From positions 36,579 to 100,578 of the IMG/VR virus record IMGVR_UViG_3300042691_025170: a DNA stretch of 64,000 nt; one strand, written 5' to 3'. The notes below the pieces were generated by a model. The model did not search any database. It was given only the letters and a program-made list of their open reading frames with translations, and had not been told where the DNA came from. This document shows, piece by piece, positions 42,014-61,079 of the stretch. Made by a program: the position numbers and the translations under genes. Position 1 is the stretch's first letter. Each line of letters starts with the position of its first letter. Source of the DNA: a virus.

Positions 42014-42706
42014 ATGTTAAATATAAATATACCAGTTACAGAAGCCTTCATCCGTGGTGAGTTCCTACGAGGTCACACCGATTCGTTTGATAAGCGTTTT
42101 CCGTGTTACATATTCGGAATGGCATCCATACCGGGCCAAGCACCACTATTTCATTTCATAATGGAAGACGGCGGACTTTGGTGGCGTATGCCGATTCATG
42201 CGTTTTGCCATCGTGAGGATGCGCCGGTTCAAGAGTTAGACGAATTGGTACTTTGGGACTCGTTTAGTTATCATCCCACCGCCACTTGTTTTTCTATATT
42301 AAAGAACAAACGGTGTGAGTTTGTGTCTCGCCGGCGAGTGACTTATTCGGGCCGTTATCTATTCACTTTGGATTGGTCGGCATCGGATGATGGTTCACAT
42401 ACCGACTACGGCCTAAGTGAGTTTCCCTCACAACACAAATGTGGTCATGTGATAGCAATGGATAACGGTAATTTTGCCATCCAACCGAATAATCGTCTAC
42501 GCATTCACGACCCGTCATTCACTGTAAAGGAAGACCTCGTGATACACCGAAAATACAACACGACACTTTGGACGGCCGAGCGTAATTCTCGCTGGGTTAC
42601 ACCCGATACTGATGTTATGAATTACGACCATACCGATTTGGGTAATGGTGAGAGTAATGCGGCACGTTCGGCAGAATATAATAAGAAAGATGCGGCTGGT
42701 ATTTGA
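42014..42706 (+). CDS. Hypothetical phage protein
   Basis: 230 aa; WRMPIHAF, YLFTLDW, HKCGH, GNFAIQPNNR. Confidence 0.65.
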   Translation: MLNINIPVTEAFIRGEFLRGHTDSFDKRFPCYIFGMASIPGQAPLFHFIMEDGGLWWRMPIHAFCHREDAPVQELDELVLWDSFSYHPTATCFSILKNKRCEFVSRRRVTYSGRYLFTLDWSASDDGSHTDYGLSEFPSQHKCGHVIAMDNGNFAIQPNNRLRIHDPSFTVKEDLVIHRKYNTTLWTAERNSRWVTPDTDVMNYDHTDLGNGESNAARSAEYNKKDAAGI

Positions 42707-43253
42707 CCACAAACATGGTAGATACGATAACGAAAACAATCTACCTCTAATTTATGTAGAGTGTGTGCGTGAGAACGAGACGACACGAGAATTATTTGAA
42801 ACGGGGTGGTTGCCATGGGGTGACCGATGGTATCAAACTCGTTCCGCAAGATTACGTTCGGGCCGTATTTCAAGTCGGCGTAAAAAGGAATTGTCCGCTA
42901 TTACCATCAAAGAAGGACTTAGCGATACGGAAAATGCCGAATGGGTAAAGAGGTTTGGATTGACGACCGGTTGGGCCGCATATGAAAAATACGGAGTACC
43001 CTATACATTTAGTTTTGATGACCGATTTTGGGGTCTTGCTAAAATCTATGACGACCAATTTTTATACTGCCTTATGTCAACTGACCAATATCCCGAATCA
43101 TATGGCACACTCTCTTATTACTATTTAATGAATAAGTTTGGTGGGGATTTTGAGTATTTATATATAACTGATTATTATGATGAATTTAAGTACAAATCTC
43201 AGCTTTTTGGCTTTGAATATTGGACAGGATTTGAGTGGGTTAAGAAACAATAG
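42690..43253 (+). CDS. Putative aminoacyl-tRNA-protein transferase (ATE1/Bpt-like)
   Basis: LFETGW..W..RSARL N-part; C-part SYGTLSY...YLYITDYY...YKSQLFGFEYW..FEW resembles the ATE_C signature SxGTxS...YxYxGY...YK..F...E...W. Confidence 0.55.
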   Translation: MRLVFDHKHGRYDNENNLPLIYVECVRENETTRELFETGWLPWGDRWYQTRSARLRSGRISSRRKKELSAITIKEGLSDTENAEWVKRFGLTTGWAAYEKYGVPYTFSFDDRFWGLAKIYDDQFLYCLMSTDQYPESYGTLSYYYLMNKFGGDFEYLYITDYYDEFKYKSQLFGFEYWTGFEWVKKQ

Positions 43254-43261
43254 TTTACTAT

Positions 43262-43975
43262 ATGAAAATAAAGTTACCAGAAGGAGTAGGAATTTGTATA
43301 CAAGGCCCAACCGACTTTACCGATATTTGTTACTTTTGGAATGGGTTTGATTGTCCGGTGGTTTGGTCTACTTGGGAAACCGAACCTGCTAAGAACATTC
43401 TTAAAATTGAAAGGTCAGGTATAGAAGTGATATTATCACCGAAACCGAATTACAGCGGATACCTTAATTTCAATATGCAGTCGACTTCTACTCGGGTCGG
43501 ATTGACTCGTCTGAAAGAATTGGGAGTCAATCATGCTGTAAAAGTCAGAAGCGATATGATATTTTCGGGAATAGAAACCGTTTGGCAAGAGATAGTCGGT
43601 TGTGATATATCTTTTATGCATTCTTACAATCCTAAGTATTGCCCTGAATTGGCTTATTGCTTGGATGGAATATATCATGTTGGGTTGGACTTTACATTAG
43701 ACCATATCGTGTTTGGAAATATAGATACTATGTTATACGTGTTTGGTGGACATGAACATTGGAATAGACCAATACCACCGGAGTCTATTATATTGAAACG
43801 ATGGTTAGACTATCGCAATTTGGTTCATGATTTTCGTCCTGAGTATCTGAAGCAAAACGGATTGGTTTACTTTGGCCCTATCGCTATGAAACACTCTAAA
43901 CAAGTATTGTGGTTGAAAAACAATTGGGACTTTACAGGTATTATGCACAACGAACCAAATCAAAGAATTTATTAA
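43262..43975 (+). CDS. WavE-like lipopolysaccharide synthesis protein
   Basis: IQGP, VWSTWE, NFNMQSTST..GL, AVKVRSD, DHIVFGN. Confidence 0.65.
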   Translation: MKIKLPEGVGICIQGPTDFTDICYFWNGFDCPVVWSTWETEPAKNILKIERSGIEVILSPKPNYSGYLNFNMQSTSTRVGLTRLKELGVNHAVKVRSDMIFSGIETVWQEIVGCDISFMHSYNPKYCPELAYCLDGIYHVGLDFTLDHIVFGNIDTMLYVFGGHEHWNRPIPPESIILKRWLDYRNLVHDFRPEYLKQNGLVYFGPIAMKHSKQVLWLKNNWDFTGIMHNEPNQRIY

Positions 43976-44014
43976 AATGAAATATGTATTGTTGTTACAC
44001 TAAAACTAATTATT

Positions 44015-44254
44015 ATGAATAAGTTAGCAGAAATATTCAAAGCTTGGAACATTGCGTTTAATCCAAACGAACCACAATCGGAATTGGCAGGTAAAAGATT
44101 GACTATATGTAATTCATGCGAGTTTCGTGCCGATACACCATTTAAAAGATGTACAGTCTGTGGATGTGCTCTTAAAGCTAAAGTGTTCAGTCCTGTTAAG
44201 AATGCTTGTCCAAAAGGTTTTTGGGCAGAAACAGATCGTGAACTGCCGGATTGA
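44015..44254 (+). CDS. Small Cys-rich protein (DUF6171-like)
   Basis: RLTICNSC..RCTVCGC.LKAK..CPKGFW. Confidence 0.65.
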   Translation: MNKLAEIFKAWNIAFNPNEPQSELAGKRLTICNSCEFRADTPFKRCTVCGCALKAKVFSPVKNACPKGFWAETDRELPD

Positions 44255-44268
44255 TATATTTATAAGGG

Positions 44269-44601
44269 ATGAAAACACTTTTAACGATTTTACTTTTATT
44301 ATTCGGTGTACCACAAGAAAGAGTGGTGTATAAGATTGAATATTATGACCCACTAAATGGCGCACAGATAGGATTGGTTCTTAACAAGATGATTGGACAA
44401 TTTAGTCCAAATTGTAGACCAAATTCTTTAACCGTGGGTTCATCAGGTACTATTCTTTATTTCAGTAGTCCGTGTATAAGTGGTGAGGAATTAAAGAATG
44501 TCTCATTAAGAACTATACCCGATGCCCGTGTAAGAAGGATTTATCGTAATGGTGGAATCATATGGCCTACACCACCCCTTAGTGATAAGAAAACAAAATG
44601 A
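44269..44601 (+). CDS. Hypothetical exported protein
   Basis: Signal-like N-terminus. Confidence 0.5.
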   Translation: MKTLLTILLLLFGVPQERVVYKIEYYDPLNGAQIGLVLNKMIGQFSPNCRPNSLTVGSSGTILYFSSPCISGEELKNVSLRTIPDARVRRIYRNGGIIWPTPPLSDKKTK

Positions 44602-45074
44602 TACGACTCAAGGATATATTGAAAGAATCCGAAACACAACGTAACATTGCTATGGTTACAGGTGTTGCCGAAATACTTCGTGGGGTGATTGACCTTGCTA
44701 ATCGTAGGGATTTGGCATATGAAATGTTGGATAAATTTAAGAGTGAAGGTATTTCAGTCAATGAACAGCAATTTCTTTCCATGTGTGGATTGACTTCTGC
44801 TAAAATTCCTTCGTTTACAATGGCAGTTCAAAACGAAGCTGATAGTCCTACCGAACGTACACGTAGATACAATCGTAAGAATAAGAAGAAGGTTCGTGCA
44901 TATCTTCGTAAAACACAAGACGACCGTGTTGCACGCAATGGTGACCGTGCCAAAGCAGTTAAAAAACATGGTAAATCAAAAATGCGTAACCATGATGTAC
45001 ATCATCCCAACGGCCCGCAAAATGGTGGAGCACGTTTGGCTAAAAAAGACCACGGACCAGATAAGAAAAAGTAA
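44598..45074 (+). CDS. Protein with MIRLKDILKE leader and C-terminal HNH-like remnant
   Basis: DRVARN..R...HDVHH.NG. Confidence 0.55.
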   Translation: MIRLKDILKESETQRNIAMVTGVAEILRGVIDLANRRDLAYEMLDKFKSEGISVNEQQFLSMCGLTSAKIPSFTMAVQNEADSPTERTRRYNRKNKKKVRAYLRKTQDDRVARNGDRAKAVKKHGKSKMRNHDVHHPNGPQNGGARLAKKDHGPDKKK

Positions 45075-45364
45075 TGAATAAATTGTTTACGATTGTTACT
45101 CTAATTCCATGCATATCACTTGCTCAACCCGACTGGCGTGAACAGCCCGTTTTCTTTGGAGTTGGAGTGGGTGTTGGAATAGGTATGGGTGACAGAGTTA
45201 GACCCGAAAGATTAGCATTTGGTTTAGGCATTGGAAAGATGGCACATGATAATCTCAGAGGTTATCCCATGGATCCGTTTACAATATCATTTGGGGCATT
45301 TGTAGCAGGTAGAGTTGGTAAAGAAATCCGTGAAAGAAGAAGATTAAAAAGAGGATTAAAGTAG
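45074..45364 (+). CDS. Hypothetical Gly-rich exported/membrane protein
   Basis: GVGVGVGIGMG. Confidence 0.5.
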   Translation: MNKLFTIVTLIPCISLAQPDWREQPVFFGVGVGVGIGMGDRVRPERLAFGLGIGKMAHDNLRGYPMDPFTISFGAFVAGRVGKEIRERRRLKRGLK

Positions 45365-45365
45365 T

Positions 45366-45662
45366 ATGTTTTCAGAAGGTGGATGGTTCATGATTTTTGG
45401 AATATTATTGGGACTCTCAATAATGATTTCTTCTTTGTATTTCGTAAATAAACTTTTCATAGTAGCTACTCAAGACATTCTTGTCAAATTCATTTTGCTT
45501 GTTTTCACATCTCTAGTTGCACTATACATAGTTGATAAATTGATAGCCTTTCGTATAAATCTTTTACCAGAAGAACAGAACAAAGAGTTATTTGATTTGA
45601 TTAAAACGCTGGTACTTATGATATTTTCTTATTATTTTGGAACTAAATCTAACAAATCATGA
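45366..45662 (+). CDS. Three-TM membrane protein (holin-like)
   Basis: Hydrophobic helices, ends YYFGTKS. Confidence 0.55.
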   Translation: MFSEGGWFMIFGILLGLSIMISSLYFVNKLFIVATQDILVKFILLVFTSLVALYIVDKLIAFRINLLPEEQNKELFDLIKTLVLMIFSYYFGTKSNKS

Positions 45663-46225
45663 TACTAAAAAATTTAAACAAAATAATCGCGGTTTTAACA
45701 ATCATATTAGTAATCGTATTGATATGGAAAGCTCTACAACCGGAGGAACATTACAGCAAGGTAGAACTAGTTAATACAAACTTTATAGTGAATGATAGTC
45801 AGTTACCATTCATAGATACCACACTTGCTGTCGGACTTAATTTAGCAGGAGTAAATTTCACATCGGTGGTAGTGAAAGACCTAACCGGTGAGATACAATC
45901 CAAATTTAGACAAGACAATGTTGGAGTTGAATTATACGCGGCAATAATTGGAAATCGTTCACAATTTATACTTTACATAAGAGATGTATCTCGCAGAGAG
46001 TCTATAAAAATAATAGCACATGAAATCATACATCTTCTTCAATATAAGTCTGGTAGATTATCTGTGATGCCACCCGATAAAATATTTTGGCAAGGTGACA
46101 CTTTAACAAATGATGACTTATATAATATGACTTATGTAGATCGTCCATGGGAACGTGAAGCGTTTGATGGTGAAGATGGATTGGCTGATAAAATGGAAGA
46201 AATCCTTTACGGAAAAAATATGTAA
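45659..46225 (+). CDS. Membrane-anchored HExxH metallopeptidase-like protein
   Basis: IAHEIIHLLQY, RPWEREA. Confidence 0.75.
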   Translation: MILKNLNKIIAVLTIILVIVLIWKALQPEEHYSKVELVNTNFIVNDSQLPFIDTTLAVGLNLAGVNFTSVVVKDLTGEIQSKFRQDNVGVELYAAIIGNRSQFILYIRDVSRRESIKIIAHEIIHLLQYKSGRLSVMPPDKIFWQGDTLTNDDLYNMTYVDRPWEREAFDGEDGLADKMEEILYGKNM

Positions 46226-46282
46226 AGATATTTATACCTGTCAATTGGGGTTACATATTAGTTATTTTCACTTTAAACTAAT

Positions 46283-46549
46283 ATGAATATGAAAAACTTT
46301 TTTAAACAACTTTTTAGCGATGACAATCAAATCAACGAAAAATCATTCGTTGGATTTTTAGCTTTCTTATGCATGGTGACTACACTAATAGCTGATGTGG
46401 CAACCGGTATAATGGGTAAAAATATGCCGATACATGAATTTGTATTTGATGGATTCATGGTAATTGTATTGGGTTCATTTGGAATCGGTTCAATTGATAA
46501 ATTTATAAACGCAAGAAAAGATAAACAAGCAGAAGGAGAAACAGAGTAA
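46283..46549 (+). CDS. Holin-like membrane protein
   Basis: Two TM helices, upstream of endolysins. Confidence 0.55.
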   Translation: MNMKNFFKQLFSDDNQINEKSFVGFLAFLCMVTTLIADVATGIMGKNMPIHEFVFDGFMVIVLGSFGIGSIDKFINARKDKQAEGETE

Positions 46550-46833
46550 TGAAAGATTTCTTAGAAGGCGTCGGTATTAATATAGCCCTTTCCGTTGCCG
46601 GGTTCTTTGGTAGTCTTCTTATGATTGGTAAGAATGCAGCTACAGATTTAAGAACCACATTTATGTCAATTATTGGTGGAGTCGCTTCGGCTAACTATAT
46701 GACGCCTGCTATAGTTGATATGCTCAGATTATCAGATTCTGAATATATATTATCAATAGCATTCCTCATAGGATTTATGGGGTTAAAGCTTGTAGAAGTT
46801 ATAAGTAAAAAATTGTTTAAAAATGTACAATGA
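46549..46833 (+). CDS. Holin-like membrane protein
   Basis: Three TM helices, AGFFGSL..ANYMTP..AFLIGFMG. Confidence 0.6.
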   Translation: MKDFLEGVGINIALSVAGFFGSLLMIGKNAATDLRTTFMSIIGGVASANYMTPAIVDMLRLSDSEYILSIAFLIGFMGLKLVEVISKKLFKNVQ

Positions 46834-47120
46834 TGATTACTATTAATCTTATCGCAAATGTAATGGTTATGATTTCCGTTACATTCTTTATTATTGGCGT
46901 ATTTGGCAGACGTAGCCAGACAATAGAAAAAATGCCACTATCTGAACAATACTTTTTAAGAATTTCCTTGTCTGTTTTAGCAGCTGGTTCATTATTAAAT
47001 ATATTAACTGTTTCAACACCGCATGCAACTGAAGTTATTTTAAATGTAGGCGTTGGATTGTTATTTACATGGGCAGCATGGTTTCATTGGAAATATTTTG
47101 TCAAAAAATCAAACAAATAG
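46830..47120 (+). CDS. Membrane protein in lysis cassette
   Basis: Three TM helices. Confidence 0.55.
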   Translation: MMITINLIANVMVMISVTFFIIGVFGRRSQTIEKMPLSEQYFLRISLSVLAAGSLLNILTVSTPHATEVILNVGVGLLFTWAAWFHWKYFVKKSNK

Positions 47121-47123
47121 ATT

Positions 47124-47717
47124 ATGAATTTAGAAAAATTAAAAGGACACATTCCAGATTCGGTAATAGCACAAATTCCGTCTGTTGCTGAAAAATTCAA
47201 AATTGATACACCTTTAAAACTTGCACATTTTCTTGCACAATGTGGACACGAATCTGGTGGCTTTAAAGTTGTAAATGAAAACCTAAATTATTCTGCAAAA
47301 GGTCTTATGGGAATATTCAAAAAGTATTTTCCAACTGAAGAATTGGCAAAGCAATACGAAAGAAAGCCAGAGAAAATTGCAAATAAAGTATATGCCAATC
47401 GTATGAATAATGGTGATGAAGCGAGTGGTGATGGTTGGAAATTCAGAGGCCGGGGATATATACAATTGACAGGTAAAGCAAATTATACTGCGTTTGGTCA
47501 ATCTATAAATGAAGATATTACAGCAAATCCTGATAAGGTATCTACGGCATATCCATTATTATCTGCAGCATGGTTTTTCTCTAAGAATTGTTTAGCAAAA
47601 TGTACATCTCCAACGGTTGAAGCAGTAACAGCAGTAACAAAATGTGTTAATGGTGGTACTATTGGTTTAGAAGACCGTAAGAAACATTTTGAAGAGTATT
47701 TTAAACTTTTATCTTAA
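47124..47717 (+). CDS. Endolysin, glycoside hydrolase family 19
   Basis: AHFLAQCGHESGGF, ENLNYS, FRGRGYIQLTGKANY, SAAWFF, VNGG..GLEDR. Confidence 0.93.
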   Translation: MNLEKLKGHIPDSVIAQIPSVAEKFKIDTPLKLAHFLAQCGHESGGFKVVNENLNYSAKGLMGIFKKYFPTEELAKQYERKPEKIANKVYANRMNNGDEASGDGWKFRGRGYIQLTGKANYTAFGQSINEDITANPDKVSTAYPLLSAAWFFSKNCLAKCTSPTVEAVTAVTKCVNGGTIGLEDRKKHFEEYFKLLS

Positions 47718-47725
47718 CAAAAGTT

Positions 47726-48496
47726 ATGCTTATCCGAAAGGGCGATGTTGGAGATAATGTAAAAGCATTACAACTCAAACTAGGATTAGTTACAGATGGT
47801 ATATTCGGAGAATCATTAGAAGCATCTGTTAAAACATTCCAAACTAAAAATGGATTAGTTGCAGATGGCATAGTTGGAAACAAAACTTGGAATGCCATAT
47901 TAACTCTTGGAATATTACAATCAAATTATAAATACTCAAAGGAAAAAATTGAAAAAGCAGTAAAATCAAAGGGTTATACATGGTTTGAAGATAAACTTAA
48001 TATAGTTGGAGTAAGAAATTCTGATACAAACAATCAAGTTACAAATGCATTTGACGATAAAATTACTGTATCTAAAAATGATAATGGGATTTGGAAATAT
48101 TATGAATGGACTATTACAACAGATCCAGGTAAAAAAGGAGTTATTCAATTCGGTAACCCAGCAGGAGTGGCTAGAATGGTTCCGGGTCAATATACAGAGT
48201 CCCATGCTTTAGGACTTCACAAAGGACAATATCAGGCATTGAGACAGCAGAAACCAGTAAAAGTTTATAGGGACGCAAATAGAGATTTAACTTATGATGA
48301 AACAACTATTCAAGAAGGATTATTTGGAATCAATATTCATAAAGCTGGTGTGGATAGCACTCTTGTGGAGAACTGGTCAGAGGGATGCCAAGTCTTTAAA
48401 ACGGCAGCACACTTTGAAGCGTTTATGGAACTTTGTCGCAACTCCGGTCAAAGGGCTTTTACCTACACATTGGTAGAAAGCAGAGATATTGTTTAA
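47726..48496 (+). CDS. Peptidoglycan-binding protein with putative L,D-transpeptidase-like catalytic domain (second lysin)
   Basis: PG_binding_1 pattern (VKALQ..L..DGIFG..VKTFQ..GL.ADGIVG.KTW); GINIH...WSEGCQV. Confidence 0.75.
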   Translation: MLIRKGDVGDNVKALQLKLGLVTDGIFGESLEASVKTFQTKNGLVADGIVGNKTWNAILTLGILQSNYKYSKEKIEKAVKSKGYTWFEDKLNIVGVRNSDTNNQVTNAFDDKITVSKNDNGIWKYYEWTITTDPGKKGVIQFGNPAGVARMVPGQYTESHALGLHKGQYQALRQQKPVKVYRDANRDLTYDETTIQEGLFGINIHKAGVDSTLVENWSEGCQVFKTAAHFEAFMELCRNSGQRAFTYTLVESRDIV

Positions 48497-48550
48497 TAGC
48501 CAAAAATAAAGTTACAAATATCAAATTTTTTTAGTATATTTGGGAACATT

Positions 48551-48624
48551 GGGGGTATAGCTCAGCTGGCTAGAGCATCTGCTTTGCAAGCAGAGGGTCA
48601 TCGGTTCGAATCCGTTTACCTCCA
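48551..48624 (+). tRNA. tRNA-Ala(UGC)
   Basis: GGGGGTA/TACCTCC acceptor with G3:U70, loop TTTGCAA, GGTTCGAATCC; CCA not encoded. Confidence 0.95.
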
Positions 48625-48628
48625 CAAT

Positions 48629-48702
48629 GGTCTCATAGCTCAATTGGATAGAGCAATTGCCTTCTAAGCAATAGGTTTCGTGTTCGAGTCACGATGGGAC
48701 TA
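48629..48702 (+). tRNA. tRNA-Arg(UCU)
   Basis: GGTCTCA/TGGGACT acceptor, ATTGC-CTTCTAA-GCAAT anticodon arm, GTTCGAGTC. Confidence 0.93.
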
Positions 48703-48707
48703 CTGAT

Positions 48708-48739
48708 TTTGTAATATCAAAAAAAAAGTCGTATATTTG
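48708..48739 (+). promoter_or_regulatory. Bacteroidota-type promoter
   Basis: TTTG-N20-TATATTTG upstream of tRNA-Ile(UAU). Confidence 0.75.
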
Positions 48740-48748
48740 TAATATCAT

Positions 48749-48822
48749 AGTCCGGTGGCGCAATTGGTTGGCGCAGGATGCTTATACCATCAAGGATGTT
48801 GGTTCAAGTCCAACCCGGACTA
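48749..48822 (+). tRNA. tRNA-Ile(UAU)
   Basis: AGTCCGG/CCGGACT acceptor, GCGC D-stem, GATG-CTTATAC-CATC anticodon arm, GTTGG-TTCAAGT-CCAAC T-arm. Confidence 0.85.
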
Positions 48823-48825
48823 CAA

Positions 48826-48992
48826 TGAGAGGCAGACGAAAGCTCAGGCGTAAGTAAGGGATGCATACTCTTACGGCGGCAAGTAGACACACGAAGAGCG
48901 TAATTAACTCTTCCCTCATTTTGCTAACCGGGCAATAGTACGATGCAGGCTCATCCCGGCGGGATACAAGGTGACGGTCAGGAAAGACTGAC
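48826..48992 (+). ncRNA. Candidate structured RNA(s) of unknown family
   Basis: GC-richer non-coding spacer with stems GTAAGGG/CTCTTAC, GAAGAG/CTCTTC, TGAG/CTCA, CCGGG/CCCGG, GTCAG/CTGAC. Confidence 0.5.
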
Positions 48993-48997
48993 AACAT

Positions 48998-49075
48998 AGT
49001 CAGGAGCGTAATGAGGCGTGGCTAGCCAAATCCCTAAAGGGTTGCACATTGCAGGTTCAAATCCTGTCCTGACTA
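48998..49075 (+). ncRNA. tRNA-like element with non-canonical anticodon arm
   Basis: Perfect AGTCAGG/CCTGACT acceptor plus A, T-arm GCAGG-TTCAAAT-CCTGT; no canonical 5 bp/7 nt anticodon arm. Confidence 0.7.
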
Positions 49076-49088
49076 CAAAATAAAAACT

Positions 49089-49571
49089 ATGAAAACAAAT
49101 GTAAGAAACACTATTTTTTTTGAACTGAAAATCATAAAAGAATATTGGCAGATAACTTCTATACTTGCAACTATTATATTTTTCTGCGTTTACTTTTGGC
49201 TACAAAGTAAGGAAGCAAATGAAAGAGTTGAAGAATTGAGTATTACTAACAAAGAACTAAAAGACAGAATAAGTCGTTTGGAAGGACAAGTGGATGTAAT
49301 CAATAGTAATATGGTTTTATTTGTGGAAAGAAATCCAGGTCTGACAACATATCGTTTGGAAATGTTGGAAGAAGCAATGGATGTTCAACAGGTTTTGAAT
49401 AGTCTTAATAGGAGAAACGAAACCGAAATTAAAATAGTTCAAATACCTACACCTGTGCCGGTATTTAATCCATCTCTCACACCGCCAACATATAATCCGA
49501 CTCAAATTCAAAGGTCAGATTCAAAAGTAAGTGTTCCGCAAAAGAAAAAGAGTTTGTTTAAAAATAATTAA
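49089..49571 (+). CDS. Single-TM coiled-coil protein
   Basis: TM segment, heptads, Pro-rich tail. Confidence 0.6.
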   Translation: MKTNVRNTIFFELKIIKEYWQITSILATIIFFCVYFWLQSKEANERVEELSITNKELKDRISRLEGQVDVINSNMVLFVERNPGLTTYRLEMLEEAMDVQQVLNSLNRRNETEIKIVQIPTPVPVFNPSLTPPTYNPTQIQRSDSKVSVPQKKKSLFKNN

Positions 49572-49591
49572 ATTTGTATATTGTAGAATAA

Positions 49592-49665
49592 GGGCCCTTA
49601 GCTCATTCGGTTAGAGCAAATGACTCATAATCATTAGGTGGTTGGTTCGATCCCAACAGGGCCCA
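49592..49665 (+). tRNA. tRNA with CAU anticodon, most likely Ile2 (lysidine type)
   Basis: GGGCCCT/AGGGCCC acceptor and GACTCATAATC arm resemble bacterial tRNA-Ile2 rather than elongator Met. Confidence 0.85.
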
Positions 49666-49671
49666 CAAAAA

Positions 49672-49756
49672 GGAGAGGTGGCAGAGCGGTTGAACGCGGC
49701 GGTCTTGAAAACCGTTTTACTGAAAAGTAACGGGGGTTCGAATCCCTCCCTCTCCG
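49672..49756 (+). tRNA. tRNA-Ser(UGA)
   Basis: GGAGAGG/CCTCTCC acceptor, G discriminator, CTTGAAA loop, long variable arm. Confidence 0.95.
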
Positions 49757-49791
49757 CATTTTTTTCTTTTTCTTATATTTAATCATAAATT

Positions 49792-49983: not shown

Positions 49984-49987
49984 ATAA

Positions 49988-50069
49988 GCCCATATGGCGT
50001 AATTGGTAGCCGCGCTAGACTTAGGATCTAGTGAAGTGATTCGTGGGGGTTCGAGTCCCTCTATGGGCA
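49988..50069 (+). tRNA. tRNA-Leu(UAG)
   Basis: GCCCATA/TATGGGC acceptor, CTAGA-CTTAGGA-TCTAG arm, long variable arm. Confidence 0.95.
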
Positions 50070-50123
50070 CATTTAGAAATTAAAAAACATATATTTATAT
50101 TTGTAAACATTAAACAATTAGTT

Positions 50124-50633: not shown

Positions 50634-50634
50634 T

Positions 50635-50666
50635 TTTGTAAAAGTCAAAAATAATACTTATATTTG
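50635..50666 (+). promoter_or_regulatory. Bacteroidota-type promoter of tmRNA
   Basis: TTTG-N20-TATATTTG. Confidence 0.75.
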
Positions 50667-50684: not shown

Positions 50685-51080
50685 GGGGGTGAATAGAATT
50701 GATTGGTAACATAGTTCATTTCCTGCAAGTGGTGTTAGATGGAAACACTTAAATCCTCTATCAACAAACAAACGGAGAGCAAATCTCTACCTTCACCTTC
50801 GCAGATGCTATGGCATTTGTAGGTGCAGAAGAATACGCACTAGCTGCCTAGTCTTATCCCGTATCACTCATGGGATGTGTCAAAAAGAAGTGAGCCAGTT
50901 TTCTTGGTAGTCACAAAACCAAGTGGTGGATCCCGGATTTCCGGAGCCCAGTATGGCGTAGTAGCCAAGTCTAACTACTACCACCGTCATTCCGAAGCGG
51001 TGTGAGAATTTCGGAATAAACTTGTGAGTGAAGGAATGGGTTAGTTAAACAAGACGGGAGTGCGAATCTCCCCACCTCCA
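50685..51080 (+). ncRNA. ssrA: tmRNA
   Basis: GGGGGTG/CACCTCC-A acceptor with G3:U, T-arm GGGAG-TGCGAAT-CTCCC, internal tag ORF 50774..50851 GEQISTFTFADAMAFVGAEEYALAA-stop. Confidence 0.93.
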
Positions 51081-51089
51081 CTAAAAATA

Positions 51090-51128: not shown

Positions 51129-51200
51129 CGCGGGATAGAGCAGTGGTAGCTCACTTGGCTCATAACCAAAAAGTCGTAGGTTCGAATCCTACTCCCGCTA
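51129..51200 (+). tRNA. Initiator tRNA-fMet(CAU)
   Basis: CGCGGGA/TCCCGCT with C1:U72 mismatch, CTCATAA loop, GGTTCGAATCC. Confidence 0.9.
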
Positions 51201-51224
51201 CGAAAGATGTTATTTGAAATAAAC

Positions 51225-54288: not shown

Positions 54289-54454
54289 AATAGATAAAGT
54301 AATAGAGTTACTAATAGAAATCCGTGACCTATTAAAAAATCAGTCACCACAACCTCAGACAAAAATAACGGTTGTCGGAAATCGTTCTGCCAATTCAGCA
54401 GGAAGGCCACCAAAGACTGCCGGACTCAATACTAACGAGGATTTTACCCTATAG
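54284..54454 (+). CDS. Hypothetical small protein (start approximate)
   Basis: ORF overlapping the end of hldD (track 54269..54454). Confidence 0.4.
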   Translation, partial: SKIDKVIELLIEIRDLLKNQSPQPQTKITVVGNRSANSAGRPPKTAGLNTNEDFTL

Positions 54455-54455
54455 C

Positions 54456-54742
54456 ATAACTACTTGATTATCAATGGTTTATAACTACTTGATTATCAAT
54501 CAGTTATAAGCGTGTTTCCTATGTCCTAAAGGGTATTTATAACTGTTTGATTATCAATCAGTTATAAAATATTTTGTAACTGTCTGATTATCAGGGGGAA
54601 AGATTTCAAAAAAAGTTCCCCAAAATGTAACCTTTCAGCCCCAATTCCGTTTAATAGTTTGACTCCATCAGTCTAGCCGTACTATTGTGCAACTGACTGA
54701 TAATCAACGAGTTACACAATTATCTGATAATCAACAAGTTAC
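54456..54742. repeat. Six imperfect ~27-bp palindromes, consensus RTAACTNNYTGATWATCARNNAGTTAY
   Basis: Copies at 54456, 54481, 54539, 54576 (core GATTATC) and 54689, 54716 (core GATAATC). Confidence 0.9.
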
Positions 54743-54746
54743 AACT

Positions 54747-55028
54747 ATGGCAATTATTGACCTCAAAACCAAAAAATACATCGTCATCGGTGGTGTTATC
54801 CATGTGTCCGAAAGGGAAGTTCCTTTTGATACGAAGTATGATGTTATCAGTCCAAAGACAGGTGTTCAGAAACGATTTCATTTTAAGGAATCAACGGGTT
54901 CTGAGTTTGACCCAAAGACAGAATGGGTTTTCAAATCAGACGATGGATATGAGTTCAGAGTTTGTAACGATAAACGAATGACCAAGTGGGCAGCAGAAAA
55001 TTATTTGAATCATAAATTACAAAACTAA
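54747..55028 (+). CDS. Hypothetical protein
   Basis: ATG 54747 directly after last repeat; the upstream extension is translated repeat. Confidence 0.6.
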   Translation: MAIIDLKTKKYIVIGGVIHVSEREVPFDTKYDVISPKTGVQKRFHFKESTGSEFDPKTEWVFKSDDGYEFRVCNDKRMTKWAAENYLNHKLQN

Positions 55029-55384
55029 TGAAACCGATTGTAAATTTCAACCAACGATTGGAACAAGAACAGATAGTAGTCAATGGTAAATATTTTAGGT
55101 TGTCACCCGATATTCCCACTTTGACAAATTGGTCGGTAGTTAGTATATGGCCCGATTGTGAAGAGAAAGTATTGATTCATCACAAATTAGAAATTGATTG
55201 GACTAATATGTGTTTCCGATTTTATCGTGTTAGGAGACGAGAGGGATTTATATCTTATAAGAGAACAGAAATCCTTTATGGTACTTTTGACCTAATAGAT
55301 TGTAGAGACCATATTGTGTTTATGAATAATGTGATATGTCGTAATATAGATAAACTGATGAGCGATGGTACATACTATTACTAA
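55028..55384 (+). CDS. Hypothetical protein (IxNF-leader family)
   Basis: MKPIVNFNQRL. Confidence 0.6.
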   Translation: MKPIVNFNQRLEQEQIVVNGKYFRLSPDIPTLTNWSVVSIWPDCEEKVLIHHKLEIDWTNMCFRFYRVRRREGFISYKRTEILYGTFDLIDCRDHIVFMNNVICRNIDKLMSDGTYYY

Positions 55385-55508
55385 GTCCCGTAAACGCAGA
55401 CTGCAAGTAGAACAAGGTGCGTATGATGGTCGGTATCGTCAAAAGATGGTGACCGACAAAAAGAAGAAGTGGAATAAAACAATTTGTAGAAAGAAAGTAG
55501 AGTTATGA
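55365..55508 (+). CDS. 47-aa basic peptide (not in ORF track)
   Basis: MVHTITKSRKRRLQVEQGAYDGRYRQKMVTDKKKKWNKTICRKKVEL; stop overlaps next ATG. Confidence 0.55.
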   Translation: MVHTITKSRKRRLQVEQGAYDGRYRQKMVTDKKKKWNKTICRKKVEL

Positions 55509-55726
55509 GTGTATTAAAAGTCAAGTTCCGTTCCGAGTTTCAGATAGGTGTAATCAAACACGAGTTGGAACAGAAGTATGGTTGTCGTATTCGTCCCCGT
55601 GGTCGTCACTCTAATCGTAAAGCAGTATTAGGTTGGAGATGGTGTAAAGGTGCACAAAACGACATACCGTGGAGGTTAGCAGAGACGGTAGCGTTTTATC
55701 AGATAAATAATTGTAAACAAAAATAA
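55505..55726 (+). CDS. Hypothetical basic protein
   Basis: RPRGRH..R..QNDIP. Confidence 0.55.
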   Translation: MSVLKVKFRSEFQIGVIKHELEQKYGCRIRPRGRHSNRKAVLGWRWCKGAQNDIPWRLAETVAFYQINNCKQK

Positions 55727-55732
55727 AGAGTT

Positions 55733-56017
55733 ATGTTTAAGAGTACACAAAACAGAGGATTTCAAATCACATTCGCAAATGGTTACACAATCTCCGTACA
55801 ATGGGGCGTGGGTAATTATGGCGACCACCGAACCGGAAAAGTAGGTGAGGAAATGAAACACCACACATGGCAATCCGAAACTGCCGAAGTTGCGGTATGG
55901 GATGAGAATGGTGATTGGGTAAGACCGGTAGGTGGGGCTGATGATGTGAAAGCATATCAGACACCCGAAGAAGTAGCAGAGGCAATTGAACGAGTAAGTA
56001 AATGGAAAGCAGTATGA
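55733..56017 (+). CDS. Hypothetical phage protein
   Basis: GFQITFANGYTISVQWG.GNY..AEVAVW. Confidence 0.65.
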   Translation: MFKSTQNRGFQITFANGYTISVQWGVGNYGDHRTGKVGEEMKHHTWQSETAEVAVWDENGDWVRPVGGADDVKAYQTPEEVAEAIERVSKWKAV

Positions 56018-56122
56018 CGAAGAAAGAGAAGAAGTTTTTAGACAAGAAGTTGGAGAACTTTATGAAGAGGTTGGAGAAACCCGAAATCAAAAAAGTATTC
56101 GTAAGATTAAAAGACAGATGAT

Positions 56123-56389
56123 ATGAAGAAAATCAGAATCAAAACCAAAATGGAAATGACCGAGTGTAAAAGTTGTGGTGGTGAGATGCCACTCCTTCGT
56201 AAGACACTCTATGGTTACAAGAATTGTATCAAGTGTAGTGACATCAAACCTTATGGGTGTGCTCATGTTACCAATCACAAGACAGGTAACGAGATTCAAA
56301 TCCTACCACACGATGTAGCAGAACGACACAATCGTATCGCAGCACGACAAGGGTATGGTGTATCTAACGGAATGAAATTTACTGATTAA
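56123..56389 (+). CDS. C4 Zn-finger protein (DksA/TraR-finger-like)
   Basis: CKSCGGEMP..R...GYKNCIKCS. Confidence 0.6.
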   Translation: MKKIRIKTKMEMTECKSCGGEMPLLRKTLYGYKNCIKCSDIKPYGCAHVTNHKTGNEIQILPHDVAERHNRIAARQGYGVSNGMKFTD

Positions 56390-56407
56390 AAATCAAAAAC
56401 AAAATTT

Positions 56408-56716
56408 ATGAAAAATCAATTAAAAAAAATGAGTCTGAATGAGATGAAGACTCTCCATCGCTCTTTAGAATCCGCTATTTACGATAAGGAATGTGAGCTT
56501 CGTAAATCCGTTAAGTGTAACAAAATTAAAGGACATTTCATATTGGAGTTCGGTGGTAAGAAGTGGGGAGTTTATGTAAATAATCGTAATGGTCGTGGTG
56601 GTTGGGATGTTCACAAAATATCTAATGGTAAGAAGGGAATGTTAGTGTGTAAGGAATGGCATTGGGGTATTAATATGTTGAGATTGAGAATAGCTAATGG
56701 TGACAAAATTAAGTAA
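56408..56716 (+). CDS. Hypothetical protein
   Basis: ORF packing. Confidence 0.55.
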   Translation: MKNQLKKMSLNEMKTLHRSLESAIYDKECELRKSVKCNKIKGHFILEFGGKKWGVYVNNRNGRGGWDVHKISNGKKGMLVCKEWHWGINMLRLRIANGDKIK

Positions 56717-56717
56717 T

Positions 56718-57086
56718 ATGGCAAGAGCAAAGAAAGTAATTGATTGGGTAGAGTTATCCGATAGTTTTCAGAAAGGTGTAATCGTTTCTGTTAAAGTGGT
56801 AGTAGGTAATAATACATCCACAAAAACGGGATTGAAAATTACCAACCTCAACAAGAAGACGATGACGGTTATGGAAGTTGACAGAACCAATAAGAAGAAC
56901 ATCTTCCGAAAGTTTCTCCGAACCGATATCGTTCAGATTGAGGGGTTTGAACTTACCTTACGAAAAGATGTGCTCCCTCGTAAAGAGGAAAGTGATTGGG
57001 GCAGTATCGGACAAGGTAGATACCAAAGGAGAGCATATAGTAACCACTCCAAAGGTTGGAGTTCAAACGCACCACAATACAGATGA
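56718..57086 (+). CDS. Hypothetical protein
   Basis: ORF packing. Confidence 0.55.
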   Translation: MARAKKVIDWVELSDSFQKGVIVSVKVVVGNNTSTKTGLKITNLNKKTMTVMEVDRTNKKNIFRKFLRTDIVQIEGFELTLRKDVLPRKEESDWGSIGQGRYQRRAYSNHSKGWSSNAPQYR

Positions 57087-57406
57087 GAAAGATAACAGAA
57101 AAATCAGTTAGAAACTTTTTAGATGGAGTTCCGTTTAAGAATGGAAACATGGAAGTTTGTAGAGAGGGTAGTATTTATTATCTCAAACTACATGGTAATA
57201 AGATTGCTGCCAAAACTACCAATGGTGACATTTGGATTAGTAACGCCGGATGGTTTAGCCGAACAACAAAAGAGAGACTGAACGCATTGCCGGGTGTTTC
57301 CATCATACAGAAAAAAAGGTTGTGGTATCTTAACGGAAACCCTTGGAACGGAAGACCAATTTGTGTTGTAGATAAAAAAAATTTATTAGGTTATGTTAGT
57401 TTATGA
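57083..57406 (+). CDS. Hypothetical phage protein
   Basis: LHGNKIA, GWFSRTTKERLNAL. Confidence 0.6.
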   Translation: MRKITEKSVRNFLDGVPFKNGNMEVCREGSIYYLKLHGNKIAAKTTNGDIWISNAGWFSRTTKERLNALPGVSIIQKKRLWYLNGNPWNGRPICVVDKKNLLGYVSL

Positions 57407-57743
57407 AACAAAAGTCGGAGAGTATTTCAAAACCAATAAGGTTGTTGAGAAATTCGTTCAAGAAGTAGACAAGAAGATTTGCGAGTATTACGATGAAAAG
57501 TTGTCCAATCTACCTCACCCAATGATAAAGGTAGAGTTAGGTAACAAGTTCATCAAGATTGTCTCTGATAGTAGTTGTTGGGGATTCATCTCTCGTGTAG
57601 ATGATGTTCATAAAGGTTCACCGATTCGGAAGGGTGACCTACTGAAACCCGCATCATACAAAGCACCCGCACGACACGCAAGAGGTAACATCATTGATGG
57701 AACTGCGAAGTGGGGAGTATATGGGCCAGAGTATATAAAGTAA
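57393..57743 (+). CDS. Hypothetical phage protein
   Basis: KFIKIV..SCWGFI..GDLLKPASYKAPARHARGNI..GPEY. Confidence 0.65.
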   Translation: MLVYETKVGEYFKTNKVVEKFVQEVDKKICEYYDEKLSNLPHPMIKVELGNKFIKIVSDSSCWGFISRVDDVHKGSPIRKGDLLKPASYKAPARHARGNIIDGTAKWGVYGPEYIK

Positions 57744-57771
57744 TCGGCGTTTTATCACAAACAATCACACT

Positions 57772-58146
57772 ATGAACATAAAAGGTTTTCACAAGTTACA
57801 AGGTCAAAAGATTAAAGTATTCGGCCGAGAGTTTAGATTGGACTTACAACAGACATCGGATACAGACAAGATGGATGTGTGGGTGTTTGAAAGTACTCCA
57901 TCTACGTTATCAAAAAGCACCTACAATGCCCTCCTTCTAACGGTTGATTTTTCTCATGCTACAAAATTACCAATTGAAACTCGTGTCTGTTTTCGTGGTA
58001 GGGGTGATGAAGCACCAAAGGGTTGGTATAATAGAGAATTAAATCCACCCGGCTGGGCATTTAACAGACTTGATAATTTCTGTGATTGGATTGCTGACCA
58101 CATGGAATTTGATTTAGGTGAAGATTGGTTTATATCCAAACAATAG
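57772..58146 (+). CDS. Hypothetical protein (IxNF-leader family)
   Basis: MNIKGFHKL. Confidence 0.55.
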   Translation: MNIKGFHKLQGQKIKVFGREFRLDLQQTSDTDKMDVWVFESTPSTLSKSTYNALLLTVDFSHATKLPIETRVCFRGRGDEAPKGWYNRELNPPGWAFNRLDNFCDWIADHMEFDLGEDWFISKQ

Positions 58147-58148
58147 TT

Positions 58149-58481
58149 ATGAAGTTGACCATTAAGAATATCAATAAGTTGAAAGACAAAATCTATCAAC
58201 CTTATGCGGAAGAGTGGCAATTAGTTCGTATTGCAGAATACGATACGCAATATCGTTTTCACTTTAACAATAACAGAGACCAAACACTATCTTGTATGAT
58301 AACATTAGAGAGATGGCCTTCGGGTAAACCTCGGACTATATATCATCAACCTAAGTATGTAATTGAACTACACGAATGTGGCATCAGACAATACGAATTG
58401 TATCACCAAGACATTAGATTTATCAATACATTCCGAGTCCTACTTGAATCTGTATTAGAAGGTAAAACCCCATATCAATGA
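58149..58481 (+). CDS. Hypothetical protein (IxNF-leader family)
   Basis: MKLTIKNINKL. Confidence 0.55.
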   Translation: MKLTIKNINKLKDKIYQPYAEEWQLVRIAEYDTQYRFHFNNNRDQTLSCMITLERWPSGKPRTIYHQPKYVIELHECGIRQYELYHQDIRFINTFRVLLESVLEGKTPYQ

Positions 58482-58813
58482 AACCTATAAAGAATTTTCA
58501 AAAGTTGTGTGATGTACTAAGTGTCTTCAACCTAAATGGTGAGAAATGTAGATTTCAGATGTATGACACGACTGAATTTTGGATAGAACCTATTAGAAAA
58601 GATTTGCAAAATGCAAATATATACTCCATGGTATTCAGACCTGATTGGGAAAACGAAACGATTAGGATGCGTGTTATATCAGATGCTCGGATTCCCGATA
58701 TGATTTACCCGATTCCTCCATTTGTAAGAAGCAATCCGCAGGATTGGGTATCATGGATTTTTGATTTAGTATCTTCACAACAAGACAAAATATACAAGCG
58801 ACAGATAATATGA
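58478..58813 (+). CDS. Hypothetical protein (IxNF-leader family)
   Basis: MKPIKNFQKL. Confidence 0.55.
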   Translation: MKPIKNFQKLCDVLSVFNLNGEKCRFQMYDTTEFWIEPIRKDLQNANIYSMVFRPDWENETIRMRVISDARIPDMIYPIPPFVRSNPQDWVSWIFDLVSSQQDKIYKRQII

Positions 58814-59172
58814 AACAACCAACGAACTTTTACAAGGTCAACAAGAAAAGATTTGTCGCGCGCGATGGTAAAGAATACGCCGTCAGTCTTGACTCCTATG
58901 ATGGTGATGCATTATTCGTCATACCCAATGGAGAATATATCAATTGTATCCATATGGTTATTCCGTGGCATGAGTGGACGGCAGAATCTATAATGATAAT
59001 GATTGGTATAGTACCATCGGGTATGGGAAAGTCATATCACGCACAATATGCAGTCATCTTGAGTAGGAAACACATTCAGAGTTTAGACCATTTTGTAGAT
59101 TGGTTAGACAATGAAGTTATTAGAATTTGTAAAAAAGAACTTGAAACGAAACTTGAAGGAAAACGAATATGA
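58810..59172 (+). CDS. Hypothetical protein (IxNF-leader family)
   Basis: MKQPTNFYKV. Confidence 0.55.
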   Translation: MKQPTNFYKVNKKRFVARDGKEYAVSLDSYDGDALFVIPNGEYINCIHMVIPWHEWTAESIMIMIGIVPSGMGKSYHAQYAVILSRKHIQSLDHFVDWLDNEVIRICKKELETKLEGKRI

Positions 59173-59501
59173 AACAACTAAGAATTGAAAGTCACTTACC
59201 CGCAATTAGTTTTGAACTCGGTGATAAGTATTGGATTGCGTGTGGCGCACAATGGATGGAAGTAGACCGAGTTTATACGCCCGAAGAACTCAAAAAGATT
59301 TGGGTAAAGACTGAAAGAAAAGTAGAGGTTCAACCGAAACAAAAGGTAGAGAAAGCGAAAATATATTCCGTTACAGGTAGTAAAGGTAAGACTTACAAAG
59401 TAAAACAACAAGGTAACTCTTGGACTTGTAATTGTCCCGCTTCTACTTTCCGCCGTTGGGAAGAATGTAAACACATTACACAAATAAAAAACAACAAATA
59501 A
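59169..59501 (+). CDS. SWIM zinc-finger protein
   Basis: GSKGKTYKV..WTCNCPA...CKH. Confidence 0.8.
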   Translation: MKQLRIESHLPAISFELGDKYWIACGAQWMEVDRVYTPEELKKIWVKTERKVEVQPKQKVEKAKIYSVTGSKGKTYKVKQQGNSWTCNCPASTFRRWEECKHITQIKNNK

Positions 59502-59682
59502 ATTTATGAAAAAGAGTAGAACTGTAAAACCAAAATCGTTATTCAAACCAATTCTTGGGGAGGATATTTTTATCCGTGAACAACATCCCGATAAGAGAAC
59601 AAATCTTCAATGGGTAAAATTTATGAACAAAAAGTTTGACCTACATTGGGGTATGAGAAAGAAAGACATTAAAGATTAATTT

Positions 59683-60280
59683 ATGATATACATTATAATA
59701 GCATTTTTTATTTGGATGGCTTATGAAATTTGGAGAGCGCCGATAATAAGAGAAATCGGAGATGACCAATATAAAATTGTTCGTAAAGAAAAAAAGTTTG
59801 GTGATATATTTAAATTTAAAAAATAACTTATGGAAGCATTGTATATTATTGGAATAATTCTCATCATCTCAGGTTTCATATCATGGGCATGGGTACAAGG
59901 TATAGACCGAGCAATGAGAGACTTTCCGGATTATAAAGGTGAAGACCTATTTGATGAAGTTCCCAAAAAGAAAGAACAATGGGATGACAACAAACAACAT
60001 ACAGAACAAAACTTTAAGATATGATTTCTATTTTAGGTAAATTAGCATTGACACTTATATTAGTGTCTGTTTTGATAGCATTTGTATATGCTTTTATTAA
60101 AGAAACAATTGATAATTATAAAAACAAAAAACCAAAGTTATGAACGTATTTGATATATTTTTACAATACCTTTTTGGTGGAATGTTGATTACAACTGTAC
60201 TGATGTTGGTATATGCTGTAATCAAGGAATTAATTAGTGATTTTATATATTATAGAGACAAGTACTTTAACAAAAAATAA
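59683..60280 (+). other. Four tandem tiny single-TM ORFs (59683..59826, 59830..60024, 60021..60143, 60140..60280)
   Basis: Each begins with a hydrophobic helix; starts and stops abut or overlap. Confidence 0.55.
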
Positions 60281-60281
60281 T

Positions 60282-60803
60282 ATGGTAGGTAAGGTAATAT
60301 TCATTGATATTGACGGCCCCCTTGCATGGGGAACTTGGACTGATGGTTCGGTAAAAATCACGGAGGGAACTCAACAAGAATTTACCATACCATATTCTTG
60401 GGTTAAAGAAGATTGTGATGCACTTGCTGAGATTATCAAACGGACTAATGCAAATCTTGTGGTGTCATCTGATTGGAAAAAGCACTATGGTATATTCCAA
60501 CTCAAAAGAATATTTGAGCATTACGAGATTGGTGGGTGGTCTGTATTAGACACGACTACACATTTCAATCCTGTTAGAAAGCTTAGTTCACCTCCTGAGT
60601 GGGACAGAGCCTGTGAGATTAAGACATGGGTTAAATCGTTCCGACCAAAACATTGGATTACGATTGATGATATGCCACTCAATATTTCCTTCAAACGATT
60701 GGGTATTCCACAATGGAGGCATGTTCAAGTTGATGGTGACTTTGGAATGGGTGGCAGACTCCGCGACAAAATTGAAGAGTGTGTTAATAAACTAAACAGA
60801 TAA
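60282..60803 (+). CDS. HAD domain protein (Swiss-Army-knife RNA-repair type)
   Basis: FIDIDGPL, VVSSDWK, RACEIKTW, IDDM. Confidence 0.75.
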   Translation: MVGKVIFIDIDGPLAWGTWTDGSVKITEGTQQEFTIPYSWVKEDCDALAEIIKRTNANLVVSSDWKKHYGIFQLKRIFEHYEIGGWSVLDTTTHFNPVRKLSSPPEWDRACEIKTWVKSFRPKHWITIDDMPLNISFKRLGIPQWRHVQVDGDFGMGGRLRDKIEECVNKLNR

Positions 60804-60806
60804 TAT

Positions 60807-61079
60807 ATGACACAAGTAGTAGAACAGATTGATGTTGACCAACTTTTAGAAAATGTGCTTGAAAAGCAGATTATAGTTTACAATGATAATGTAAACACTT
60901 TTGATTGGGTTATACTTTCGTTTATGGAAGTTTTAGAGCATACCTTACATCAGGCTGAACAATGTGCTATGATTATTCATAACAGAGGAAAGTGTAGTGT
61001 AAAAGTTGGTAACCAAGATGAACTGAAACCATATCGTGACGCACTGACTGAACGAGGTATCAACGCAAAAATTGAATAA
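60807..61079 (+). CDS. clpS: ATP-dependent Clp protease adaptor ClpS
   Basis: IIVYNDNVNTFDWVI..HT..QAEQCAMIIHNRGKCSVK.G. Confidence 0.9.
   Translation: MTQVVEQIDVDQLLENVLEKQIIVYNDNVNTFDWVILSFMEVLEHTLHQAEQCAMIIHNRGKCSVKVGNQDELKPYRDALTERGINAKIE

Follow-up and report, generated by a model that had tools for sequence, protein, structure and literature searches.

Does a phage that carries an aminoacyl-tRNA-protein transferase-like gene, a ClpS adaptor and a transfer-messenger RNA (tmRNA) run a protein tagging and degradation system of its own, or were these genes gathered one at a time? The question is raised by a viral contig of 100,578 bp (IMG/VR record IMGVR_UViG_3300042691_025170), of which bases 36579-100578, a stretch of 64,000 nucleotides with a G+C content of 34%, were analysed; this stretch is called the window, and all coordinates refer to it. 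Aminoacyl-tRNA-protein transferases are the cellular writers of N-degrons (ATE1 in eukaryotes, Bpt and Aat in bacteria), and a preliminary description of the window had joined a putative writer, a ClpS reader, the tmRNA and two donor tRNAs into one pathway. The genes at issue are as follows.

42690..43253, plus strand, predicted minimal ATE1/Bpt-family aminoacyl-tRNA-dependent transferase (P0001, 187 amino acids), assigned by transitive homology, profile and fold
50685..51083, plus strand, one-piece tmRNA, Rfam RF00023
60807..61079, plus strand, ClpS adaptor of the Bacteroidota type, 90 amino acids, Pfam PF02617

The individual parts named in the preliminary description (ClpS, the tmRNA with its YALAA tag, tRNA-Arg, tRNA-Leu) were all recovered. 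The system into which it had combined them was not, and the three genes are genuine accessory functions that were probably acquired separately. They lie in three modules: the ATE-like gene in a replication block, the tmRNA in a tRNA cluster, and ClpS among small open reading frames (ORFs) 17.5 kb downstream of the ATE-like gene, with lysis genes, heptose-pathway genes and many small ORFs between. A Pfam scan of 20 further ORFs (44269-63957) revealed no protease, amidase or deformylase. Within 10 kb, ClpS stood beside the ATE-like gene in 1/80 related viral loci; counted from ClpS, an ATE-like gene stood beside it in 0/80. Over whole records, two of the ten long ATE-bearing records had ClpS (G003 and G004, apparently close relatives), and two ATE-bearing records rated 100% complete lacked it; none of the 13 long ClpS-bearing records had an ATE-like gene, six of these records having a completeness rating of at least 99%, and both positive controls were detected. 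A tmRNA was present in one of the five ATE-bearing records tested, a record without ClpS. The distribution of the genes among relatives is thus essentially independent, though many of the records are fragments, and a dedicated, co-inherited system of ClpS, tmRNA and ATE-like gene is not supported. Furthermore, P0001 is only 10-13% identical to the ATE_C protein of Chitinophagaceae, as against up to 59% identity between the phage ClpS and its host-clade counterparts, so that the histories of transferase and ClpS differ.

The identity of P0001 had to be established indirectly. Its reading frame is open, and in the family alignment all homologues begin at the same methionine (ATG 42690). No direct match was obtained with Pfam (E <= 1; ATE_N included), PHROG or NCBIfam (including the PRK01305 models), and the protein did not reach the Pfam ATE_C gathering score. 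Exhaustive phmmer searching from P0001 gave 40 relatives and linked it to proteins of 222-247 amino acids with PF04377 (P0025, P0027, P0030, P0034 and P0037; 27.5-35.2 bits against a cut-off of 25). The longer relatives also weakly match the NCBIfam 'arginyltransferase' (PRK01305) models. A profile of 32 relatives of P0001, searched against the PDB, matched yeast ATE1 structures (E 5e-4), as did a profile of the sister, longer subfamily (E 2e-6). The resemblance of the P0001 C-terminus to the ATE_C signature, pointed out in the preliminary description, is thus real but remote.

The fold gave the same answer. P0001 was modelled using AlphaFold (AF2) with a predicted local distance difference test (pLDDT) score of 92.6. 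Foldseek ranked human, yeast and K. lactis ATE1 first (probability 1.00), followed by Aat L/F-transferase, FemX and Sbb17. ATE1 was also at the top in VIA-align, where the model was superposed on human ATE1 with Z 11.2 and a root-mean-square deviation of 4.2 over 183/187 residues, and on klAte1 with Z 9.3-9.6 over model residues 1-187. Ordinary GNATs align only with residues ~47-180; because ATE1 covers the whole model, the N-terminal 48 residues are the counterpart of the ATE_N lobe, and the two-lobed ATE1 architecture (N-domain plus GNAT core) is present in the model. Profile and model together place P0001 among the GNAT-fold aminoacyl-tRNA transferases, in the ATE1/Bpt lineage, with a predicted activity.

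Residues were mapped through the printed hidden Markov model alignment to klAte1, numbered against the mutagenesis data of PMC9351520, and residue frequencies were counted over 199 distinct family members. Y303/K304 of klAte1, of which the Lys304 mutant is inactive (PMC9351520), are Y168/K169 in P0001. K169 is invariant, as are Y158 and R54 among others, and Y168 is found in 189/199 members. After the invariant RSxR strand comes a basic helix (residues 62-69, RRKK); in ATE1 a positively charged helix at the corresponding place binds the tRNA acceptor arm (PMC9351520). Since the GNAT core, the Tyr-Lys pair and the basic helix are all kept, the most likely reaction of the enzyme is transfer of an amino acid from charged tRNA to an amine. 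The Tyr-Lys pair would handle the aminoacyl ester, and the basic helix would suit the tRNA acceptor arm. That the ORF is instead a decayed, inactive Bpt remnant, the tmRNA being a degenerating pseudogene, is very improbable. P0001 is without a direct Pfam match, as decay might leave it, but strictly invariant residues in 199 members, intact ORFs and a confident fold are not what decay leaves, and to judge from these alignments the family is under purifying selection.

The acceptor is where P0001 departs from ATE1. In ATE1, recognition of the acidic N-terminal residue by Arg79/Arg80 has been proposed and demonstrated by mutation (PMC9351520; bioRxiv 10.1101/2022.07.20.500667). The corresponding site in P0001 is G39-W40-L41-P42 (G-W-[ILV]-P in the family), and position 42 is Pro in 191/199 members and Arg in 0/199. 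The ATE1 motif, which we take to be spelled GFRRSG, agrees with the published numbering, and the ATE_C protein of Flavipsychrobacter (Chitinophagaceae) has GWYRSG at the aligned site. Because the equivalent of Arg80 is Pro, a canonical acidic N-terminus (Asp/Glu) is an unlikely acceptor for P0001. The CxxC/CC cluster (Zn or Fe-S) that aids tRNA binding and regulation in ATE1 (PMC10115844) is absent as well: the family alignment shows no conserved Cys among its 60 N-terminal residues. Of the Bpt/ATE1-like transferase of the preliminary description, then, the lineage stands on profile and fold, and the Asp/Glu specificity is contradicted by Pro42, which is never Arg, and by the missing Cys cluster. 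Chitinophagaceae ATE_C proteins (L098 and L099, from Flavipsychrobacter genomes; 221-230 amino acids) are also without CxxC/CC, but retain GWYR(S/T), so that the likely host clade, too, has a cysteine-free Bpt-like form.

The donor pocket points elsewhere too. Glu277 (Glu/Asp277) of ATE1 binds the Arg side chain of Arg-tRNA, and Bpt has Gln189 for Leu (PMC9351520). The equivalent of Glu277 in P0001 is Leu146, placed by a G-x-x-S-x-x-x anchor with a gap of 1-2 residues that differs between two MAFFT alignments. Of the 199 members, 149 have Glu here, 23 Phe and 21 Leu, and in the family alignment (loci L001-L080, proteins P0001-P0161) the position is dimorphic: Glu goes with the subfamily of ~224 amino acids, which bears a C-terminal extension, and Phe or Leu with that of ~190 amino acids. 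The Bpt pocket is Ala/Ala/Gln/Leu (PMC9351520) and that of P0001, by alignment, Tyr/Ser/Leu/Leu, which would make both hydrophobic. From the replacement of the Arg-binding Glu by Leu146, and from the likewise more hydrophobic pocket of Bpt, we infer a hydrophobic donor amino acid (Leu or Phe class). In the N-domain, H7, G39, W40, W47, S52 and R54 are invariant or nearly so across both subfamilies; an invariant N-domain beside a dimorphic donor pocket suggests that the family uses one acceptor type with different amino-acid donors.

What that acceptor might be is bound up with the gene directly upstream.

42014..42706, plus strand, 'PurM-like/ferredoxin' phage protein, phrog_3704, 230 amino acids, PHROG E 1.2e-51

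The PurM-like stop overlaps the transferase start by 17 nucleotides. The PurM-like gene is directly 5' of the ATE-like gene in 38/80 loci (55-81% identity), and 41/80 ATE-like loci are without it. It also occurs in 114 GenBank phages that carry no ATE-like gene, under the name PurM or ferredoxin, a label it bears in cyanophages, pelagiphages and Flavobacterium phages; because so many phages have it alone, the pair is frequent but not obligatory. The gene order in relatives is gp32, UvsX/RecA, 5'-3' exonuclease, DnaB, PurM-like, ATE-like and ribonucleotide reductase (RNR), and the ATE-like gene belongs to this replication and nucleotide-metabolism module, in which it would be an old viral gene translationally coupled to the PurM-like gene. 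The PurM-like protein gave no match with Pfam or NCBIfam, its AF2 model was poor (pLDDT 58), and the ESM Atlas returned only virus-only hypothetical clusters (0.80-0.81). The protein is far more conserved (55-81%) than the downstream transferase (27-49%). Invariant His, Cys and Trp residues are numerous in it, and the names it carries in GenBank look like a misannotation passed from record to record.

These neighbours invite a reading in which the transferase has nothing to do with proteolysis and acts on a non-protein or non-canonical acceptor, such as a DNA base or nucleotide, an amine of the cell wall or of a small molecule, or a group carried by the PurM-like partner. FemX, MprF and Sbb17/Sba18, which have the same fold and appear in the fold search, use non-protein acceptors. 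The Arg80 equivalent is lost, the frequent PurM-like coupling sits between the DnaB and RNR genes, and an N-domain that hardly varies while the donor pocket does would fit one conserved, unusual acceptor. Nevertheless only ATE1 aligns over the whole length of the model, its N-terminal domain with the peptide-acceptor site included, and the PurM-like pairing is not obligatory. We consider this reading unlikely, though about as likely as the phage-run N-degron pathway weighed below.

Whatever its acceptor, the transferase is not peculiar to the window. At least 207 IMG/VR loci carry the family, and 450 metagenomic proteins match it at E <= 1e-3; the Joint Genome Institute had automatically named many of these arginyltransferase. 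Searches of 50,697 GenBank phage records by tblastn with P0001 and P0030 gave no match, and in the data searched the family occurs only on viral or metagenomic contigs. A literature search for phage-encoded ATE/Bpt found nothing relevant and no description of a viral member.

The ClpS gene has a different background. It matched PF02617 with E 1.9e-15 and 56.8 bits against a cut-off of 23, and the NCBIfam ClpS models match too. Its closest cellular homologues are all from Bacteroidota (Chitinophagales, Sphingobacteriales, Flavobacteriaceae; 46-59% identity), with which it has the motif NDxVNTF...HQAEQCAMI in common, and on this sequence kinship it is a recent acquisition from that phylum. The N-degron pocket is formed by N34/D35/H66 in E. 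coli ClpS and D33/H65 in M. smegmatis ClpS, with Met40 as gatekeeper (bioRxiv 10.1101/2024.06.12.598358). N26, D27 and H58 of the phage protein align with the residues that grip the N-degron amino group in solved structures, in keeping with the role of N-degron reader that had been proposed for it. The gatekeeper Met is replaced by Phe32, as in nearly all aligned Bacteroidota homologues, so that specificity may differ in detail. Approximately 20 residues stand ahead of the ClpS core, aligned with the N-terminal extensions of host proteins; the protein is not tail-less. With pocket and extension intact, the phage ClpS would most likely dock on a host ClpA/C-type unfoldase and re-bias host Clp proteolysis; we infer both this partner and the timing.

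ClpS is rare among GenBank phages (3/50,697 records), and at least 536 IMG/VR stretches encode one of the Bacteroidota type. In the window it is preceded at a distance of 4 nucleotides by the following gene.

60237..60803, plus strand, HAD phosphatase of the 'Swiss Army Knife RNA repair' type, PF18143 HAD_SAK_2, E 8.2e-17

Among 83 other viral ClpS loci, a HAD_SAK_1 gene takes the same position in 41 and a DEAD/ResIII helicase gene is upstream in 21. The recurring upstream neighbours of phage ClpS carry RNA-related annotations (L125, L061, L081, L082 and other loci). Homology at the sequence level between the HAD_SAK_2 protein of the window and the HAD_SAK_1 neighbours was considered and rejected (BLASTP E 9.6).

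The virus itself is a large T4-like freshwater myovirus of which about 53% was recovered (CheckV completeness). Its B-family DNA polymerase (window 3500-6055) is nearest to that of Microcystis phage Mel-JY01 (190 kb; 48% identity) and otherwise ~30% identical to those of T4-like cyanophages; this kinship, together with PhoH, a thymidylate-synthase-like gene and a nuclease, points to a large T4-like myovirus. One strand holds 136 of the 139 ORFs in the window. The sequencing runs that contain DNA of the contig are labelled freshwater, aquatic and 'fungus' metagenome, with no RNA run listed for it, and megablast of window 42000-52000 against GenBank phages gave no match. A GH19 (chitinase class I-like) endolysin and a PG_binding_1 protein (window 47124-48496), probably a lysis cassette, lie just 5' of the tRNA cluster.

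On the face of it the host signals conflict, the polymerase pointing to a Microcystis phage and the ClpS (up to 59%) and tmRNA tag pattern to Bacteroidota; to go by sequence, the host is probably a member of Bacteroidota. In the five Bacteroidota genomes with the closest ClpS, Aat was found in 4/5, an ATE_C protein in 2/5 and a ClpA/C-like unfoldase of ~857 amino acids, matched over its whole length, in 3/5; their tmRNAs have tags of the GENNYALAA type. Since such genomes carry Aat, ATE_C, tmRNA and unfoldase, the most likely setting is a Bacteroidota host whose Leu/N-degron pathway is complete.

The phage tmRNA can be compared with those of these candidate hosts. It matched RF00023 over the full model (positions 1-374), scoring 59.5 bits where the gathering threshold is 47 (E 9e-21). 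It was missed by ARAGORN at default settings; relaxed ARAGORN (-ps90) called 50685..51081 with the tag AEEYALAA and a stop. The acceptor stem GGGGGUG pairs with CACCUCC and includes a G3:U70 pair, and the tag frame ends at a TAG codon at 50849..50851. By alignment to Bacteroidota tmRNAs the resume codon is GGT at 50822, giving GAEEYALAA as against the host GENNYALAA, of the same length and pattern. Pseudoknot 1 is separated from this host-type codon by an insertion of ~45 nucleotides. Because the tag frame already runs open from 50774, for 25 codons in all, the usual resume position being there, where the Rfam model expects the tag to start, the tag could have 9 or 25 residues. The T-loop is UGCGAAU in place of the usual UUCGAAU. 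SmpB was not found on the recovered contig, which represents 53% of the genome.

This is the other half of the decay reading dismissed above. The score of 59.5 bits, where host tmRNAs reach 133-166, fits degeneration, as do the insertion and the altered T-loop; full model coverage, G3:U70 and an intact tag frame with its stop do not. As read from its sequence the gene is diverged yet structurally complete, and a diverged tmRNA of the host type would write the tag (G)AEEYALAA.

Seven tRNAs were found within 48551-51201 (ARAGORN, Rfam RF00005).

48551..49757, plus strand, tRNA cluster Ala-TGC, Arg-TCT (48629..48703), Ile-TAT, Met-CAT, Ser-TGA, ARAGORN and RF00005 (54-68 bits)
49988..50070, plus strand, tRNA-Leu (TAG), ARAGORN and Rfam (57.5 bits)
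51129..51201, plus strand, tRNA-Met (CAT), directly after the tmRNA, ARAGORN and Rfam

Clusters of tRNA genes are common in large phages. The tRNA-Arg and tRNA-Leu of the phage were considered as dedicated donors of the transferase and rejected in that role, as nothing beyond their presence ties them to it.

The pathway of the preliminary description can now be weighed in the form that best fits these data. The transferase would add Leu or Phe, possibly from the phage tRNA-Leu, to selected host or phage N-termini; ClpS would deliver the products to host ClpA/C-P; and the tmRNA would be a second, C-terminal route. One genome holds an intact gene of each kind, writer-like and reader-like. The ClpS pocket residues and N-terminal extension are kept, and the Clp partner is present in the candidate host clade, as are Aat and ATE_C enzymes of its own. 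If the pocket is hydrophobic, as Leu146 suggests, the N-terminus produced would be a primary ClpS degron. The pathway is nonetheless unlikely, because the genes are 17.5 kb apart in different modules, their distributions look independent, the Arg for an acidic N-terminus is missing from the transferase, and the neighbours are the wrong ones: the conserved partner of the transferase is the PurM-like gene, and those of ClpS are HAD or helicase genes. In the other lineage in which ClpS and ATE-like genes meet (G003, G004 and L061), the enzyme moreover has the Glu pocket (Arg-type), unlike that of the window phage. A version of the pathway with a non-canonical writer, in which the mini-transferase puts Leu or Phe from (phage-supplied) tRNA on N-termini other than Asp/Glu and the host-derived ClpS feeds the marked proteins to host ClpA/C-P, is likewise unlikely. 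If it were true, the phage would choose what the host protease destroys during infection.

Several points nevertheless tell against three separate acquisitions. Most of the related records are fragments (CheckV 17-87%), so that absences are soft, and the genome of the window phage was itself recovered to 53%. ClpS and ATE-like genes are found together in at least two distinct lineages (the window phage and the G003/G004/L061 group), and since ClpS is so rare in phages their co-occurrence may exceed chance. If the donor is hydrophobic, its transfer would leave just those N-terminal residues by which ClpS recognises its substrates. The activity and donor of the viral transferase family are read from sequence and model, and the donor pocket from an alignment with a small local ambiguity. 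A loose functional synergy in the window phage is accordingly possible. Three separately acquired functions are still, on balance, the probable explanation.

The joint presence of ClpS, tmRNA and ATE-like genes in a phage is therefore no ground for annotating a system; what merits further study is the mini-transferase family seen on viral contigs. This compact, cysteine-free ATE1-type enzyme belongs to a family of hundreds of phage genes. If its acceptors are protein N-termini, it would be a viral means of rewriting them and would bear on Clp proteolysis, defence and takeover in the host; if not, a new tRNA-dependent tailoring reaction in a phage DNA-metabolism module. At 187 amino acids it is also attractive as a minimal scaffold for structure-function study of ATE1-type chemistry.

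Each of the three genes has known counterparts. Phage tmRNAs are known from ~2.3% of phage genomes, for example that of the OM43 phage Melnitz (PMC9004378), which likewise has a complete ssrA among tRNA genes and a tag ending in a Clp-type degron. Compared with other phage tmRNAs, that of the window is one-piece, has a Bacteroidota-like G...YALAA tag and carries its insertion of ~45 nucleotides ahead of the tag. Jumbo-phage ClpS proteins have been described and were proposed to bring targets to host ClpAP (PMC7824862; Atu_ph07, PMC6102473); here the carrier is a T4-like phage of the ~190-kb class, and its ClpS is of the Bacteroidota type (NDxVNTF...HQAEQC) and stands directly behind a HAD_SAK gene.

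For the transferase the closest comparison is eukaryotic ATE1 (8TZV, 7WFX/7WG1, 7TIF, 8E3S), with a fold match over the whole length (183-185/187 residues) and a homologous ATE_C core; P0001 has 187 amino acids against ~500 and is without the C-terminal domain and the CxxC/CC metal or iron-sulphur site. Bacterial Bpt (ATE_N plus ATE_C; PRK01305) is alike in small size and superfamily, whereas P0001 has no ATE_N or PRK01305 match. Aat, FemX, MprF and Sbb17/Sba18 have the GNAT-type fold and tRNA-dependent chemistry in common with it (Z 7.7-8.4 in the fold search), but score lower than ATE1 and have no sequence-level match to P0001. Among them FemX, MprF and Sba18 cover only residues ~31-182 of the model, and Aat and Sbb17 span it with fewer aligned residues.

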